A stretch of DNA of 64,000 bases from an uncultured Actinomycetota bacterium (GCA_963808495.1 CAWEGC010000008.1:291577-355576), one strand, 5' to 3'. Positions 29,446-37,402 are shown, counted from the stretch's first letter. Program-made: numbers and translations. The notes: generated from the letters alone by a model not told the origin.

Positions 29446-32400
29446 CTAGCTGACAAGGGCCCGGATCTCGGTCACCGACAGCGGCACGCCGGCCAGCGCG
29501 TCGTCACCAAACATGGCGGCGAACAGTTGCTCCTTGCGCTCCTTCAGCTCCATGACCTTCTCCTCAATGGTGTCACGAGCCACAAGGCGATAGACCAGCA
29601 CCGTCTTTGTCTGGCCGATGCGGTGCGTACGGTCGACGGCTTGCGCTTCGGTGGCGGGATTCCACCAGGGATCGAGCAGGAAGCAGTAGTCCGCCTCCGG
29701 CAGATTGAGCCCAAATCCTCCAGCCTTCAGGCTGATCAGAAAGACCGGAACCCGTCCACTGCGGAAGCGTTCGACGGCGACCGATCGATTCCTCGTCCGG
29801 CCGTCCAGGTACGCGTAGTCGATGCCCTCCTCCTCGAGCCGAGCTCTGATCTTGCTGAGGAAACTCGTGAACTGGCTGAAGACCAGTCCGGAATGGCCCT
29901 CGGCCACCAGCTCGCGGAGCTGCTCACAGAGCACCTCGATCTTGCTCGCCGGAACACCGGCGTGGATGTCGTCGACCAGGCTCGGGTCAAGACTCAACTG
30001 CCGGAGCAGAGTCAGTGAGCGGAGGATGGTGAATCGGTTCCGGTCAAGATCATCGATGAGACCCAGCACCTTCTGTCGTTCACGCTGCAGGTGAGTCTGG
30101 TAGATCCGCATGTGTTTCGGTTGCAGGACGACCTCGACGACCTGCTCCTGCTTGGGCGGCAGCTCGGACGCCACGCGTTCCTTGGTCCGACGCAGCATCA
30201 ACGGCGAGATCCGGCGCCGAAGTCGGCCCATCAGTTGTGGGTCCTGGGCCCGTTCGATGGGCCGCCGGTAGAACTCCGAGAACCTGTCGGGGTGGGGGAA
30301 CAGTCCGGGTGCGGCGATGGAGAGCAGGGCCCACAGTTCCATCAGGTTGTTTTCCAGCGGCGTGCCAGTGATCGCGAGCTTGAAGTCCGATCGCAGCCGA
30401 CGGGCACTCTGGTAGGTCTTGGCCCGATAGTTCTTGACGAACTGAGCCTCGTCCAAGAGCACCCCGGCCCAGGGCAGTTCAGCATAGGAATCGGCGTCGA
30501 TTCGCAACAGCGTGTAGGACGTGACCACGACATCAGCGCCGGCAACCGCCTCGGCCAAGGACTGTCGGCGACGGGCCTGGGACCCTTCGATGGTGATCAC
30601 CGAGAGGTCCGGGGCAAAGCGGTCTGCCTCAGCGGCCCAGTTCGACACCACGCTCGTCGGTGCGACGACGAGAAAGGGCGGATCTTCGGGCCCCGCCAGC
30701 CGGGCATGACAGATGAGCGCGAGCGCCTGAATGGTTTTTCCCAGGCCCATGTCGTCGGCGAGGATGCCACCCAGGCCATGGCTCCAGAGCATCTGCAACC
30801 AGCGAAATCCCTCGACCTGGTAATGCCGCAGGGTTGCCTTGAGCGTCGAAGGTGTAGCCACCGATTCCGGAATTCGGGTCGCTTGATCCTCGCCCGACAG
30901 CGCCCGGACGGAAGCTGATCCACCTCTCAGCCTGTCCGACCACGACGCCGAGTTTGATCAAGTCATCCCAGAGCCCCGCCTGGAACTTGCTGATCCTCAA
31001 GCCTGGCCGGTCCCGGTCCTGCAGCGCCCGAGCCTCTTCGATGAGATCTCGCAGTTGATCAAGCTCCGGTCGGTCGAGGGAAAAGTAGACGCCGGTATCC
31101 AGGATCAGATAATCCTGCCGCTGGCTGAGGGCGACGAACAGTGCTTCGAAAGGAACCACCTCGTTCTCGAGTGAAACGGCGATGTGTAGGTCGAACCAGT
31201 CCGAGTCCTCGTCGTTCTCTGCAGTGGAGACCTCGATCACCGGCTGCGCTCCGGTCTCGCGGTAGTCCAGAACGTCGCCGAGGAGGGTGACCTGTACGCC
31301 AGCTCGCTCGAGCGATGGAAGGACCTCGGCGGCACACAGGGCGGCGTGCACACCGCCCAACAGGACGTGCGCTAGGGGACGGGGGCGGCCGCCGACCTCG
31401 GCGAGCTGAGGAATCTTGTCGTACGGCAGGGGCAACTGCTCCAGCTGTCGCTGCTCCTCGGCGACATCCCTGACGGACGGCCGCCTGACTGGCTCATCGA
31501 GGTCGAACGTCGCCACCGAATCACCGATCCGGTACTCCCACGCCCAGTCGAGGCGGAGTCGGTGCTCCTCTTTGAACGTGGCGAGGAGGGTGAGAACCGG
31601 AGGCTGATATTCGGGCAGCGAGACCGATCCGTCGGTTGAGATGATCGCGACTTTCTGGCGGAGCTGCGGCAGGTAATCGGTGGTGAACCGGTGTTCGTCA
31701 GCGGGAGGAACGGTCAGCGAAGGGCCATCGGTGAGAAGCTGGCGCAGCTCTCTGCTGAGCGGCTGGGTGAGCTGAAGCAGACTCAAGGTGGGGGTTGCGT
31801 TGGGCGCCGGTCCCCAATGAAACAGGCCATGTGCCGGATCGCCGAGCAACCCGATGCGCGGCAGCTGGAGTTCACGACCCTCCTGAAGCACGGCGGGAGA
31901 CACGACGAGCGCGCCTTCGTCGGAGCGCCGCACGTTCAACACCACCGACGCGTTGGTCTGGCACAGCTGGGGGGCGTTCGCCGAACCTGCAACCAGTAAT
32001 GTGAGCCCGCTCTCCGCGGCCTGCTCCAGCAGGGACCACCAGACGCTGGTTACCGAGCTGACCGAGAGCCACGGCGTGCGGGGAAACATGTAGCGAGCGC
32101 TCGCGCCGGCCGCGGCCCGAAACTGCAGAAGCAGATCGACATGGGTTGGCAGATAACTGCGGCTGGCATAGTCCAGGTCCTCCCATCCGATGCCGGTGCG
32201 AATCCACTTTCCGCTCTTACCGGCGCGCAGCGGTCGGATGCGCAGGTCGATCCGACCAGGTTGTCCTCGGTAGGTCGGCATCTGCTCGACCTCAAACTCC
32301 AGGCCCAGCCGGTCAGTCGCGACCGGTGGCGGATCCGGTGCGATCGCGACCTTGCGGAGAGTCCGCTCCCACGCTGGTTGCGCCAGCTGGGCGGAAACAC

Positions 32401-32707
32401 CTGCCATGCTGCGCGCCACGATCAGCACCGCGGCGGCATGCTTGCAGTCCATGGCGACCGGACAGGAGCAGACGCCGCGATGTGCAGTGAGCGCACCCGA
32501 GGCGGACTGGGCCAACTGAATGGAGGTGGCGTAATCGTCGCGGTAGCTTCCCCGAACCCGGCCACGAATGATCAGGCTGGGTTCGTCGAGCTCGACATCG
32601 GTCACCCGACCGTTGCGCGCGTACACCATGCCCCGAGCGAATGCCTCGTGGCCGACCATCTGGACGATGGCATCGTTGCCGAGCATCGATGTCCAGGATC
32701 CGGCCAT
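29446..32707 (-). CDS. SWIM zinc finger plus SNF2-family helicase (frameshift(s) near 30880-30920)
   Basis: CSCPVAMDCKH (SWIM); LADDMGLGKT, DEAQ, TGTPLEN, SLKAGGFGLNL, DPWWNP, QAVDRTHRIGQ. Confidence 0.92.
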
Positions 32708-32736
32708 GATTCGCATGCTAATCCTCGGTGAGGACA
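32708..32736 (-). promoter_or_regulatory. Leaderless promoter with a PafBC/RecA-NDp-like element
   Basis: TGTCCT-N10-TAGCAT-N7-ATG on the minus strand; the PafBC consensus is TGTCGG-N10-TANNNT. Confidence 0.4.
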
Positions 32737-32871
32737 CCACCTGCCAGTTGCAGCGCGGCAACAGCCACCCCACTGTACCTGGGTCGGATCGGCGGTGCCA
32801 CAGTTAGCTCTACGACGCCGGCGGGGCGCCGTGCGATCGAGCCTGCGGCTCACCAACAGATGGAGGGATCT

Positions 32872-33584
32872 ATGAGCGAATCAACGCCCACTCCCAGCGA
32901 GGGTTACGAGAAGCTGGAAGGAATAGCCGACGGCGGCGCTGACGGTGTTCCGGGCATCCAAGACGGCGGCGCTGACGGTGGTGCGGACAGCGGCGCTGAC
33001 GGTGGCGCGTCGGACAGGGGTGCCGATAGGGGCTCGGATCTTGGTGCAGATGTGGGCGCGGGATCGGGTTCGGACCTCGGTGCGGACCTCGGGGCGGGAT
33101 CAGGCTCTGACCTTGGAGCGGATGCCGGAGCCGGCGCCCGAGCAGACAGCGGCGCCGATGGTGGGGCCGCGGAGACGGGGGCGCAGACAGTGGCGCATTC
33201 GGGGACGGCGGAGCCGATAGCGGGGCCGACGGCGGTGCTCGCGGAGACAGCGGCGCATCCGGGGACGGCGGAGCCGACCGAGGTGCCGATCGCGGAGCCG
33301 ACGGAGGGGCCGACGGCGGAGCAGACAGCGGCGCCGGGGACGATGCGTTCGGCGCTGACCGGGGTACTGGGTACGACAGCGACGTGGCCGGCGCCGGAGG
33401 AGTTGCCGGATCGCAAAGTGGACCCGACGGCCCGCAGACTGCGGCCGGAGCCAGTGGAGCCACCGGAATGGCGGACGGCGGCGCCGATGGTGGCGCTGAC
33501 GGCGGAGCTGATGGCGGCGCCGAAACGAGCTACGGGGCTGACCGCGCGGCCACAGATCCAAACCTCGATCGCGACAATCTCTAA
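32872..33584 (+). CDS. Asp/Gly/Ala-rich protein of ~30 D-x-G-A repeats (~237 aa after restoring one C near 33168)
   Basis: RBS GGAGGG at 32862; MSESTPTPSEGYEKLEGIADGGADG...; after GCC(C)GC the repeat register continues RGDGGADSGA...MADGGADGGADGGADGGAETS...DRDNL* to the TAA at 33582-33584. Confidence 0.75.
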
Positions 33585-33601
33585 CGGTGGATTGATTCCT
33601 A

Positions 33602-34843
33602 TTGACTCCACCTCGTGACCCAGGCGGGGTGCCCGGAAGTCAAGCCGGGCACCCCATGCTCACTCAGCTGATCAGCATCGACTCCGAGCGTTTCGCGAGC
33701 GACTACTGGGGTAGGCAAGCCCTGCTCTCCCGAGCCGCGGAACTGCCGGGCGGCTTCGCTGCGCTGTTGAACAGCGAAGCCATCGACGAACTCGTTTCCC
33801 AGCGCGGACTCCGGACACCATTTCTGCGGGTGGCCAAGAACGGGTCGACACTCGCCGAGAAGGCCTTCACCGGACCCGGCGGCGTGGGGGCCACAATCGC
33901 CGACCAGGTCAGCGACGACAAGCTCGTCCGCCTCTTCGCGGATGGGTCGACGCTGGTTCTCCAGGCACTGCACCGGGTCTGGCCGCCGATCATCGAGTTC
34001 TGCCAGCGACTGGCGACCGAGCTCGGACATCCGGTTCAGGCCAATGCCTACGTCACTCCCCCGCAGAACCAGGGCTTCAGTAACCACTACGACGTACACG
34101 ACGTCTTCGTCCTCCAACTTGAAGGGTCGAAACGCTGGCAGATTCATTCACCGGTGCTGGAGGCGCCGTTGCGTGACCAGCCGTGGAACGATCGCCAGGC
34201 GGATGTCGAGTTGCGGGCCGCTGAGCGTCCGCTGATCGAGGCCGTGCTGGAGCCGGGCGACTGTCTCTACCTTCCGCGCGGCTTCCTGCACGCCGCCAAA
34301 GCCTTGGGTGGCGTCAGCACACACCTGACCATCGGCGTCCATTCCTGGACGCGCTTCGCCCTCGCGGACGACATGCTTCGACAGGCGTTGCAGGCTGTGG
34401 CCCGAGATCCAGAAATCCGTCGCTCGCTGCCGCTGGGCGTCGACTTCACTGATCCGGGGCCACTGAGCCGTGATGTCGAGCTTGTCCGGCGTTCCCTGAT
34501 CCGTGCGCTGGAGACCGCCGATCCGGAAGAGATCCTCAGCACGCTGCGCCGTAACGTCCGCGGCACTCAGCGCGCTGCCCCCATCGGCCCACTACGCCAG
34601 CTTCGGGATGCCAACCGCATCACCGCCACCGCCAGGGTCGCGCTGCGGAAGCACTTGGCCGCATCCGTTGATCAGGTCGGTGGGCGAAGTACGGTTCGCA
34701 GCCGCGCAGGAGACTTTCCGCTGCGGGAGGAAGACGTCGCGCCGATGAGGACCTTGCTCGAAAGCGGTTCCGCACGAGCCGATGATCTTGGTCTGGACCT
34801 CGCCCGGCGATTGGTGCTGGCTGGCCTGGCCACCGTGGAGTGA
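33602..34843 (+). CDS. JmjC/Cupin_4 2-oxoglutarate-Fe(II) oxygenase (YcfD/RoxA-NO66-like)
   Basis: NAYVTP, HYDVHDVFVLQLEGSKRW (HxD plus 2OG Lys), LEPGDCLYLPRGFLHAA (distal His), C-terminal helical/winged-helix region. Confidence 0.88.
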   Translation: MTPPRDPGGVPGSQAGHPMLTQLISIDSERFASDYWGRQALLSRAAELPGGFAALLNSEAIDELVSQRGLRTPFLRVAKNGSTLAEKAFTGPGGVGATIADQVSDDKLVRLFADGSTLVLQALHRVWPPIIEFCQRLATELGHPVQANAYVTPPQNQGFSNHYDVHDVFVLQLEGSKRWQIHSPVLEAPLRDQPWNDRQADVELRAAERPLIEAVLEPGDCLYLPRGFLHAAKALGGVSTHLTIGVHSWTRFALADDMLRQALQAVARDPEIRRSLPLGVDFTDPGPLSRDVELVRRSLIRALETADPEEILSTLRRNVRGTQRAAPIGPLRQLRDANRITATARVALRKHLAASVDQVGGRSTVRSRAGDFPLREEDVAPMRTLLESGSARADDLGLDLARRLVLAGLATVE

Positions 34844-35764
34844 GGCAGCATCAGGCGCGCTTCCGTTGCGCGGACGCGGCACGCGAGCGGGGCGATCCGA
34901 TCGCCGGCTCCGCCCCGCAGACCCGTCGTTGGCTGCTGCTTGAGCACCTCGGCCCGTGGTCGATCGACGCTGTCGCCGGTTCTGGCATCGAGCCTGCCAT
35001 CCTCGAGCGGCTGAGTGATGCGGCACAGCGGACCACGACCAGAATTTTGCTGGTCCGTCGGCACGGCAGGAAGAGTCGAGGGCTGGACCGGCGATGGATC
35101 CTGGCCGGTCTGGACGCAGCCACGGTGCAAGGCACGTGGCAGAGCGACACCGACTTGGCTTCCGCAGCCGATGCCTTGATGACTGAGGCGCCGCGCGCCA
35201 CCACCGAACCGGAGCCGATCATCCTGGTGTGCACCCATGGAGTGCACGACACCTGCTGCGCTTTACGCGGCCGCCCAGTTGCCGCCGCGCTGTCCGCTCA
35301 GTGGCCGGAATTGGTCTGGGAGTGCAGCCATGTGGGGGGTGATCGCTTCGCTCCCAACGTTCTCGTGCTCCCCGACGGTTTCTACTACGGCAACCTCGCG
35401 CCCGATGAAGCGGTGACGACGGTGCAACATCACCTAACCGGCGCTGTTGCTCATGAGTACCTTCGCGGCGTCGTTCGCTACCCGCCTCCGGTGCAAGCCG
35501 CGGTAGTCGCAACGTACGAGCGCTGTCCTCCCTTGGGCCCCGGTCAGATCACTGTGCGATCGGTCAACCAGATCGGTCCGCACGACGGGCACGGCTCGGA
35601 GACCGATTGTTGATCTTGAGGTACCGACGTTGCGCGCGGACTTCCGAGCGGAGATGCTGTCGGTTCGCCGTCCGGAGGCCAAACTGACGTGCCGCGCCGA
35701 TCGGGAGACGCCCGCCACGGAGTACCGGCTTCTACGCTTCGAGCAGGCAACTCCGGATGGATAG
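34840..35764 (+). CDS. Sucrase/ferredoxin-like (Apd1/Aim32-type thioredoxin-like [2Fe-2S]) protein (frameshift near 35605)
   Basis: WLLLEHLGPW, RILLVRR, LVCTHGVHDTCCALRG, WECSHVGGDRFAPN; the C-terminus ...AKLTCRADRE...QATPDG* lies in the shifted frame; GTGA overlap with the cupin stop. Confidence 0.85.
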
Positions 35765-35795: not shown

Positions 35796-36224
35796 ATGAT
35801 GCCGACCATCCACGTTTCCGTCGTCACATCCCTGAGCCCTCAGGAAGCGATCCGGCGGCTCAGCGATTTCGGACCCAATCGCGCGGAGACCTGGCCGAAC
35901 GTCGATCCAGAAGGCGTCAAGGTTCACCAACAGGGACCCGACTGGGCCGATGTCACCGAGGGCAACCGCTTCGCCTGGGAGCGCGAACGCTACGAGTGGG
36001 ACACCGAAGCTGGGACCGTCTCCTCGGTCACCACCGACTCCAACGTGTGGCAAGCGGGTCCGGCTTGGAGTTACCGGCTCATCGCCCAACCGGAGGGCAC
36101 CCGCGTCGACGTGACGGCTCGCCGGGAAGGCAAAGGCGTCAGAGGAAAGATCGTCGGTGCGCTGCTGTCGATCGTCGGCAAGAGAATGATCCGATCCAGC
36201 ACTGCTTCGGCCCTCAGGCCCTGA
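35796..36224 (+). CDS. SRPBCC/polyketide-cyclase-like protein
   Basis: RBS GAGGAG; about 142 aa with a helix-grip-like pattern (WERERYEW, GTRVDVT). Confidence 0.6.
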   Translation: MMPTIHVSVVTSLSPQEAIRRLSDFGPNRAETWPNVDPEGVKVHQQGPDWADVTEGNRFAWERERYEWDTEAGTVSSVTTDSNVWQAGPAWSYRLIAQPEGTRVDVTARREGKGVRGKIVGALLSIVGKRMIRSSTASALRP

Positions 36225-36232
36225 GCTGCTCC

Positions 36233-37402
36233 TCAGAGACTGACTCGCAGGATCAGATCGTCGTCGCGTCCGGGCGCGGTACGGCCGTCGGTGTTGCTGG
36301 TCGTCATCCACAAAGTCCCATCCGGAGCTGCAGCCACGCTTCGAATCCGACCGTAATCCTCGGTGAAATAGGCTCTCGGCTTGCCCGCGGCAGTGCCCCT
36401 GAGTGGCACGGCGAACAGGCACTGCCCGCGCAGCGCACCGACGAACGCTGTCGAGGCGGTGATCGCGAGACCGGCGGGCGAACAGCTACTGGTGGGTGAC
36501 CACGTCAGCTTCGGTGCCTCCAATCCGGATTCGTCCGAGCGTCCCTCAACGCGCGGCCACCCGTAGTTCCTGCCCTTGACAATGAGGTTGAGCTCATCCG
36601 ACTTCTGCTCGCCGAACTCGGTAGCCCATAACCGGCCCTTTTCGTCGAACGCCAGGCCCTCCACGTTGCGATGGCCGTAGCTCCAGACCCGATTGCCGTA
36701 CGGATTGCCGGGGGCGGCCCGACCGTCGGGGCGAATCCGCAGAATCTTGCCCAGTATCGAATCCTTGTCCTGCGCAGCAGAGGAATTCCCGGCATCACCG
36801 GTGGCGACGAACAGCATGCCCTGCCGGTCGAACAGCAGCCGACCGCCATGATGGCGAACGCCGGTGGGGATGCCGGTCAGAATCTCTTTGGGCCGTCCCA
36901 GCCGACCGCGCGCCAAACTGCAGCGGACGACACGATCGTCGCTTCCAGTGGTGATGTGCGCGAACAATGTCTCCTCATCGTCTGGCGCAAGAGCGATGCC
37001 CATCAGCCCGCCCTCGCCGAAACCGGAGGGTGCGACGACCCCGGCAACGTCGCCGACTGAGCTGACCTTGCCTCGGTTCGAGATCCGCACCACCCGGCCT
37101 GAGTTCCGCTCCGAGACGAGCGCATCGCCGGAACTCAGGAAGGCGATCCCCCAAGGAACGTTGAGGTTGTCGGCAATGATGCCGGTGACCTTCGGCCTAG
37201 GCGCCGCGGTCCTCGACGGTGACGCTGAGGGCGTTCGTGCGGAGCTGGGGGAAGTTCGCGTTGGACTCGGCGTTGCCCCCGATGGGACCGCCTGAGGCGA
37301 TGAGCTTGATGGACTTTGGCTGCCAGCCGTAGCGGAACATCCAGAAGCCACACCCAGAGCAGCACCAGCCGAGCCAAGAAGGAGCGTTCGTCGAGAGACC
37401 AC
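36233..37402 (-). CDS. Tat-exported lipoprotein, PQQ-dependent sugar dehydrogenase (GSDH family)
   Basis: SRRTLL twin-arginine signal, lipobox-like ASGC; PWGIAF, GEGGLMG, HHGGRL, YGHRNVEG, GRNYGWP, GRIRSV. Confidence 0.88.
   Translation of the reverse strand: MVSRRTLLLGSAGAALGVASGCSATAGSQSPSSSSPQAVPSGATPSPTRTSPSSARTPSASPSRTAAPRPKVTGIIADNLNVPWGIAFLSSGDALVSERNSGRVVRISNRGKVSSVGDVAGVVAPSGFGEGGLMGIALAPDDEETLFAHITTGSDDRVVRCSLARGRLGRPKEILTGIPTGVRHHGGRLLFDRQGMLFVATGDAGNSSAAQDKDSILGKILRIRPDGRAAPGNPYGNRVWSYGHRNVEGLAFDEKGRLWATEFGEQKSDELNLIVKGRNYGWPRVEGRSDESGLEAPKLTWSPTSSCSPAGLAITASTAFVGALRGQCLFAVPLRGTAAGKPRAYFTEDYGRIRSVAAAPDGTLWMTTSNTDGRTAPGRDDDLILRVSL

Follow-up and report, generated by a model that had tools for sequence, protein, structure and literature searches.

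What is made by three adjoining bacterial genes that encode a protein of D-x-G-A repeats, a JmjC oxygenase and a ferredoxin-like protein of iron-sulfur type? The question is raised by a stretch of 64,000 nucleotides (the window) from an uncultured Actinomycetota bacterium (GCA_963808495.1, CAWEGC010000008.1:291577-355576), whose closest named relatives are Propionibacteriaceae metagenome-assembled genomes (87–95%). A sequence-only reading had taken the repeat protein to be the dedicated substrate of the oxygenase, hydroxylated at Asp to give a ribosomally made metal-binding polymer. Comparison with other genomes now indicates that the peptide is very likely a physical partner of the oxygenase, as suggested by covariation of its leader with the enzyme, and points to Asp as the likeliest target; β-hydroxylation of Asp is given somewhat better than an even chance. 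The metal-binding part of the proposal found no support.

An oxygenase match was found in 70 of 401 Actinomycetota genomes, the window's own counted in. About one sixth of the sampled genomes therefore hold a relative, and nearly all of the well-scoring ones have an Asp-rich peptide of their own. Sixty-nine loci from 68 genomes were read, leaving out the unpublished genome G048 and including the unpublished G088. A peptide was scored when Asp made up 12% or more of the final 45 residues of the open reading frame ending directly upstream. By this test it was present in 63 of 69 oxygenase loci, compared with 5 of 55 stand-alone ferredoxin loci. Six loci lack it: one of them is cut off by the end of its contig, and the other five belong to the six lowest-scoring matches. 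A ferredoxin gene lies downstream in 54 of the 69, and peptide and ferredoxin are both present in 53; the earlier reading expected the trio to recur in other genomes, and it does so widely. Among the best 80 of 561 metagenome matches, 13 had too little upstream DNA, and a DGGA-type peptide was seen by eye in all 67 with more than 250 nt. In close relatives the upstream peptide is present in 28 of 28 loci, frame-broken in two. Since kin are not independent, the locus counts show inheritance as a unit and not repeated origin. No relative was found in viral contigs. No protease or exporter had been noticed beside the cassette, and this holds across the family: there is no third recurring family among the reading frames of 78 loci of at least 4.5 kb, the most frequent extra neighbour, SNF2, occurring in at most 10 of them. 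Neighbourhood clustering does not exclude housekeeping proteases or exporters elsewhere in the genome. By the usual marks of RiPPs (peptides synthesized ribosomally and modified after translation), the precursor gene linked to a modifying enzyme is present, and the leader-removing protease or exporter in the cluster is absent.

The oxygenase, numbered here from ATG 33656, matches Pfam JmjC_2 (E 7.5e-29). The HxD...H and Lys site described earlier is intact (H144-x-D146...H212, K159), and all four residues are invariant in 56 of 56 oxygenases. Its assignment to a YcfD/NO66 type needs narrowing, in that the enzyme is much nearer to NO66 (E 4e-24) than to YcfD (5e-6), with MINA53 (2e-19) between them among the closest solved relatives. 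The structural model (predicted local distance difference test score 94) has the JmjC, dimerisation and winged-helix architecture, and matches NO66 over its whole length (Z 30.3, root-mean-square deviation 4.6, 374 residues aligned). In these features, as in the HxD...H site, the 2-oxoglutarate Lys and the NxY motif, it resembles the ribosomal oxygenases (ROX) NO66/RIOX1, MINA53/RIOX2 and the YcfD proteins of E. coli and Rhodothermus; unlike these, it has its own Asp-rich partner gene and a patchy distribution.

The substrate pocket is where the enzyme departs from NO66, which grips its substrate His through Tyr328 and Ser421, according to the accessible parts of two reports (PMC4556315; PMC9994133). 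Equivalent positions were counted along the NO66 sequence alignment from the Asn326-x-Tyr328 motif. Tyr328 is kept as Y132, and Ser421 is replaced by Gly227 in 56 of 56 oxygenases, which leaves the histidyl-hydroxylase signature of NO66 and MINA53 incomplete. Arg297 of NO66 is aligned with Val, and there is an additional His148, invariant in 56 of 56. The H148/G227 pair is common to distant relatives encoded behind other Asp-containing peptides (L255, L256, L258, L259, L289, L292); L290, the sole relative in a thiopeptide-type cluster, has Gln and Ser at these positions. Some distant relatives lie within annotated RiPP clusters. Actinobacterial homologues go unmentioned in the accessible part of PMC6006756.

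The full-length ROX architecture would also fit a different role, in which the acidic peptide is a partner but not a substrate (it might buffer metal, inhibit, or mimic nucleic acid), while the target of the oxygenase, like that of ribosomal oxygenases, is some other protein of the cell. The wide variation in peptide length (49–317 aa) and repeat type, and the lack of processing or export genes, would agree with this. A patchy enzyme is unlike a housekeeping ribosome modifier, however, the His-binding Ser has been lost, and relatives are found either within RiPP clusters or downstream of short peptides of other kinds; on balance we consider such a role unlikely.

The D-x-G-A repeat of the window is far beyond chance, and is the sole site in the 3.56-Mb genome with at least five such units per 60 codons. 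This genome (84.5% complete) has a single JmjC_2 gene, a single PF06999 gene and a single such repeat. Family cores range from DGGA repeats through DADGTD-type repeats, and many of the peptides are exact multi-core repeats. Core composition was counted in the 64 peptides whose start could be assigned. No residue is more abundant than Asp (24%), and Ala, Asp and Gly alone are present in every core; His is found in 16, Asn in 18, Lys in 21 and Arg in 32. D-G occurs in 59 cores and A-D-G in 52. In most of the family the peptide begins with an acidic leader, LxD(D/E)D(I/M), which the window's clade lacks. No Pfam or NCBIfam family matched the peptides above cut-off, NCBIfam giving only sub-threshold low-complexity MSCRAMM matches. 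Members carry the automatic UniRef and Atlas label 'BatC protein', Atlas clusters being otherwise unnamed; this is a label only, presumably borrowed from the Bacteroides aerotolerance operon.

With Gly and Ala in every core, the oxygenase could instead attack one of these, for example by α-hydroxylation of Gly leading to backbone cleavage. Short repeat units would thereby be freed without a protease, in keeping with the exact multi-core repeats and the absence of a recurring protease. Against this, ROX enzymes and SmaO act on the side-chain Cβ, the cores of L020, L034 and L067 are poor in Gly and rich in Asp, and Asp is the most abundant residue; Gly or Ala chemistry is very unlikely. In SmaO the Asp is hydroxylated within G-D-G and the following Gly is required, according to the accessible text of PMC12186529.

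Leader and enzyme appear to have changed together. The dataset comprised 126 enzymes: that of the window and 125 others, each full-length and paired with a peptide whose start could be assigned. Seventy-one go with a leader-bearing peptide and 50 with a leader-less one; 5 were ambiguous and were left out. In a tree of the first 300 alignment columns the leader changes four times, the window's lineage being among those that lost it. Position 352 is basic in 68 of 71 leader-bearing enzymes and in 0 of 50 leader-less ones; only the window's clade was used in choosing it, and the pattern was then borne out by three more lineages. Five of 122 conserved columns were lost by three or all four leader-loss lineages, all five being among the 27 winged-helix columns. 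In 1365 overlapping control sets, each of four leader-keeping clades, at most three columns were lost, at most one of them in the winged helix. Because the leader-loss lineages lost conserved residues only in the C-terminal winged helix, we infer that this domain is the leader-binding site of the family, degenerate in the window's leader-less clade. In the model the C-terminus has three strands followed by helices. No PqqD/RiPP recognition element (RRE) match was found by Pfam in the 56 oxygenase members, and no such structure was among the 50 matches listed for the whole oxygenase model, all of which were filled by the catalytic domain. A complex prediction pairing the oxygenase with residues 1–50 of the window's peptide gave a score of 0.01, uninformative either way. 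A precedent for the arrangement is MppG, an Fe/2-oxoglutarate RiPP hydroxylase with a C-terminal RRE that is leader-dependent, as described in the accessible part of bioRxiv 10.64898/2026.10.04.756588.

The third protein belongs to the Suc_Fer-like family PF06999 (E 4e-21; 76.4 bits compared with a curated cut-off of 34.9). In a model of L001, an unbroken homologue with 84% identity, the fold is that of a thioredoxin-like 2Fe-2S ferredoxin (Z 13.1, root-mean-square deviation 2.6, 95 aligned). Family and fold agree with the earlier description as Apd1-like, a term that the ligand motif qualifies. The bis-histidinyl motif of Apd1/Aim32 is given as C-x8-C-x24-75-H-x-G-G-H in the accessible text of PMC11138216, and as C-x8-C...H-x-G-G-H in PMC8482512 too. 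The window has C131-x8-C140...H164-x-G-G-D168, reading HVGGD, and H-x-G-G-D is found in 42 of 42 aligned cassette copies. Cassette proteins have in common with Apd1/Aim32 the C-x8-C, the H-x-G-G motif and the thioredoxin-like ferredoxin domain, and differ in the change of the second His ligand to Asp, rarely Glu or Cys, and in a C-to-H spacing of 23.

A separate PF06999 search gave matches at 97 places in 91 of 151 genomes, of which 89 were read (one unpublished and seven already read as cassettes were left out). The fourth ligand of the 29 ferredoxins beside an oxygenase is Asp in 28, Cys in one and His in none; in the 60 away from an oxygenase it is His in 43, Asp in 12 and unread in five. 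Metagenome copies of the cassette add two Cys and two Glu, which fit a position retained as metal ligand. The Asp-type ferredoxins fall in a single clade of a quick tree (Shimodaira–Hasegawa-like approximate likelihood ratio 94), with three His rows also inside, so the change to Asp was probably one event. Among the 12 genomes with stand-alone Asp-type ferredoxins, seven have an oxygenase match elsewhere (six of them strong, from one family, each with a peptide), compared with 2 of 39 His-type genomes, both weak. The ferredoxin gene is absent downstream in 15 of 69 loci, three of these having little DNA or a gene on the other strand, and its position next to the oxygenase is thus dispensable. 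Since His ligands raise [2Fe-2S] potentials, according to the accessible part of bioRxiv 10.64898/2026.10.21.760712, the predicted Cys2-His-Asp [2Fe-2S] cluster would have a lower potential than the Cys2-His2 Apd1 type.

A fourth ligand that is never His beside the oxygenase (29 of 29), and varies among Asp, Glu and Cys, might also mark a catalytic protein. The oxygenase would then make hydroxy-Asp, to be dehydrated or cleaved by the ferredoxin-like protein, whose reducible iron would bear a labile carboxylate. The accessible text of PMC12186529 gives the precedent, SmaO and SmaX taking Asp to hydroxy-Asp and on to aminomalonate, and H136, N173 and T283 co-vary in the ferredoxin-like protein. 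This two-step tailoring is distinctly improbable, given that the ferredoxin gene is missing beside full-scoring oxygenases (L014, L017, L038, L052 and others), that it is located elsewhere in six genomes of one family, and that the only clear structural matches of the domain are electron-transfer ferredoxins.

Some ferredoxin arrangements were noted in passing. In family f94 (L249-L254) peptide and oxygenase stand apart from the Asp-type ferredoxin, which was found elsewhere in five genomes, and G414 has a full cassette with a Cys-type ferredoxin plus a separate stand-alone Asp-type copy. Cassettes without a downstream ferredoxin (L070, L072, L077, L014, L052) have atypical peptides, with His/Asn/Glu-containing TEDDEN-type repeats or GDAA repeats.

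The favoured reading may be put as follows. The repeat protein would be the dedicated substrate of the adjoining NO66-like oxygenase, which would β-hydroxylate many Asp residues, probably at A-D-G sites, inside the cell and without cleavage of the peptide. The altered iron-sulfur protein would be an accessory electron donor, re-reducing either the oxygenase's iron or that carried by the product. For most members of the family the acidic N-terminal leader would dock on the winged helix as a RiPP leader does on an RRE; in the window's clade, with leader and docking residues both lost, recognition would be by the repeats themselves. Judged from sequence comparison and from analogy, β-hydroxylation of an uncleaved cytoplasmic peptide with the third protein as accessory reductant is slightly favoured. 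β-Hydroxy-Asp binds Fe(III) in siderophores. That the product is an intracellular metal binder is nonetheless doubtful, and the full combination, an intracellular, uncleaved poly-(β-hydroxy-aspartate) metal-binding polymer with leader recognition by the winged helix and a Cys2-His-Asp partner that reduces the metal or modifies further, is more doubtful still.

Several observations weigh against the favoured reading. The H148/G227 pair is also present in L291, in a LanM cluster, and in L075 and L078, where no Asp-rich peptide was seen. D-G is missing from 5 of 64 cores, and Gly and Ala are as universal in them as Asp. The leader covariation rests on four lineages, and with only three well-supported independent pairs a sign test (p 0.5) cannot reach significance; the leader tree was made with FastTree, and the control clades were unmatched in branch length. 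Asp as fourth ligand also occurs outside the cassette: 12 of 40 Asp-type ferredoxins do not adjoin an oxygenase, and in 5 of these 12 genomes an oxygenase match is absent altogether. Upstream boxes resembling those of IdeR and Zur were no better than in shuffled sequences, which with the housekeeping-type promoter elements described below leaves a metal-related role without support. In the window itself the cassette is frame-broken twice, and none of the contigs listed bridges the repeat-gene break.

Both breaks had been passed over in the sequence-only reading, which treated the repeat and ferredoxin genes as intact. Its co-directional trio is as described, with a 17-nt gap from the repeat-gene stop TAA (33582-33584) to TTG 33602 and a GTGA overlap at 34840-34843 (Table 1). 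Its estimate of about 30 D-x-G-A units is close to the number counted, and these are not in one open frame. The first frame, from ATG 32872, has 14 units and loses register near 33165-33180; the remaining 15 are in a second frame ending at 33584. In the ferredoxin-like gene the final ~50 codons are in another frame, to 35764. Its frame is cut by an extra base near 35605: one base is absent at 35605-35606 in three contigs from two soil or rhizosphere runs (X1, X2). With these contigs, and a neighbouring SNF2 gene split likewise, the ferredoxin-gene break is very probably an assembly error; for the repeat and ferredoxin genes taken together the frameshifts are probably such errors.

Table 1. Features of the cassette; positions are counted from the first nucleotide of the window
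Feature	Position	Strand	Remarks
Asp/Gly/Ala repeat protein gene	32872..33584	+	~237 codons read across frame break; 29 D-x-G-A units
Structured intergenic RNA	33586..33655	+	Folding compared with shuffles
NO66/ROX-fold JmjC Fe(II)/2-oxoglutarate oxygenase	33602..34843	+	Start TTG 33602 or ATG 33656
Predicted C-terminal winged-helix domain of oxygenase, ~residues 320-395	34613..34843	+	Model topology, full-length NO66 match
Sucrase/ferredoxin-like (PF06999) protein	34840..35764	+	Assembled frame stops at 35613

Were both breaks real, the window's copy would be a decaying operon; as assembled, two of its three genes are broken, and the listed contigs leave the repeat break unbridged. This is very unlikely, since the upstream SNF2 gene is split likewise compared with four intact relatives, and the extra base in the ferredoxin gene is missing from three contigs of two runs. 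Moreover, divergence at third positions in the family frame persists after the repeat break: over 88 codons each, the two halves of the gene differ from L008 and L110 by 14–17 synonymous and 3–7 non-synonymous codons, mostly at third positions and of coding type. The few-contig genomes G529, G538, G546 and G552 show scattered breaks at other places. Intact repeat proteins of 280–317 aa are found in the homologues L001, L003, L008 and L110.

The RNA between the repeat and oxygenase genes folds more stably than its shuffles (z = -3.76; 0 of 200 equally stable). A first hairpin pairs a Shine-Dalgarno-like element, GGUGGA, and covers TTG 33602; a second, of 11 bp and GC-rich without a U-tract, ends at ATG 33656. 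The sequence is nearly invariant in L008 and L110. Folding z is below -2 in only 14 of 61 family loci, compared with 3 of 61 controls, and the structure is thus not universal. The oxygenase start lies -4 to +20 nt from the peptide stop in 46 of 61 loci. This proximity, together with the hairpin over the Shine-Dalgarno-like element and TTG, suggests translational coupling of peptide and oxygenase. The seemingly start-less oxygenase of family f15 is explained by overlap: in 9 of 10 loci an in-frame ATG precedes the stop codon of the peptide gene by 23–26 nt. In L023-L029, L032, L033 and L035 the oxygenase starts inside the last 7–8 codons of the peptide gene, with its ATG at -23 to -26 in nine of the ten; no convincing start was found nearby in L031, L039, L045 and L072. 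Upstream of the cassette, a housekeeping-type TANNNT -10 element occurs in 44 of 64 loci, against a comparison value of 7.5. The window itself has no exact TANNNT in the upstream interval scanned and no sigma-70 or terminator match. A stress-sigma promoter was rejected, GGGTA-type elements being present in 8 of 64 loci (shuffle mean 6.5) and the bipartite form in 3 of 64 (shuffle maximum 3).

The searchable literature, with subscription journals outside its coverage, gave no description of the cassette. Its parts come from known families and follow a RiPP-like logic, yet the signatures of NO66 and Apd1 fail and RiPP processing genes are lacking. One near likeness, in described activity, is to SmaO: an Fe/2-oxoglutarate enzyme acts on Asp in Gly-rich D-G motifs of a precursor and is followed by a second iron protein, an order that in the cassette is predicted from the genes. 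In contrast to the cassette, SmaA has two sites, a leader of the double-glycine type and an ATP-grasp enzyme, and SmaX is an HD-domain enzyme. JmjC enzymes that act on RiPP precursors are described in the accessible parts of reports on CzlI (PMC11575548) and BipG (PMC12707348). Together with MppG/MppE these are Fe/2-oxoglutarate hydroxylases of RiPP precursors, as proposed for the cassette oxygenase. They are tailoring enzymes for Trp, Phe or ornithine, and their clusters also contain class-defining enzymes; in the cassette no modifier but the oxygenase recurs, and the proposed substrate is a repeat polymer.

The cassette offers a three-gene system open to direct test. Its oxygenase, closely related to human NO66 and probably a processive hydroxylase of Asp, exists in nature in leader-dependent and leader-free forms. 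A hypothesis is also at hand for the role of the ROX winged helix, and the predicted Cys2-His-Asp [2Fe-2S] variant of the Apd1 family has natural Glu and Cys counterparts. If the full combination described above is true, peptide-modifying bacterial enzymes would be the nearest kin, as linked through solved structures, of NO66-type ribosomal oxygenases.

Around the cassette, a SWIM-SNF2 helicase gene (29446-32773, minus strand) is divergent from it and has a frame break at ~30914; in the relatives L001, L002, L003 and L006 the gene is unbroken (~1110–1140 codons). Downstream are an SRPBCC/polyketide-cyclase-like gene (35799-36224, plus strand; Pfam score below cut-off) and a PQQ glucose/sorbosone dehydrogenase-like gene (36233-37402, minus strand); both are shared only by close relatives and are outside the cassette.

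In a sister group (L255, L256, L258, L259, L292, L074) a related oxygenase with the same HxDxHD motif is encoded after a short peptide whose leader differs and whose core consists of Asp/Gly/Ser; next comes an aldo/keto reductase, which was confirmed by Pfam for L292 (plasmid pSV2). The group looks like a second undescribed RiPP-like family; a literature search gave no description of it. On a Streptomyces clavuligerus plasmid (L289:3781-7128) a 48-aa acidic peptide, with a leader resembling LxDEDI, precedes the oxygenase, and an S9 peptidase gene lies convergent to them; in no other case was a peptidase seen nearby.

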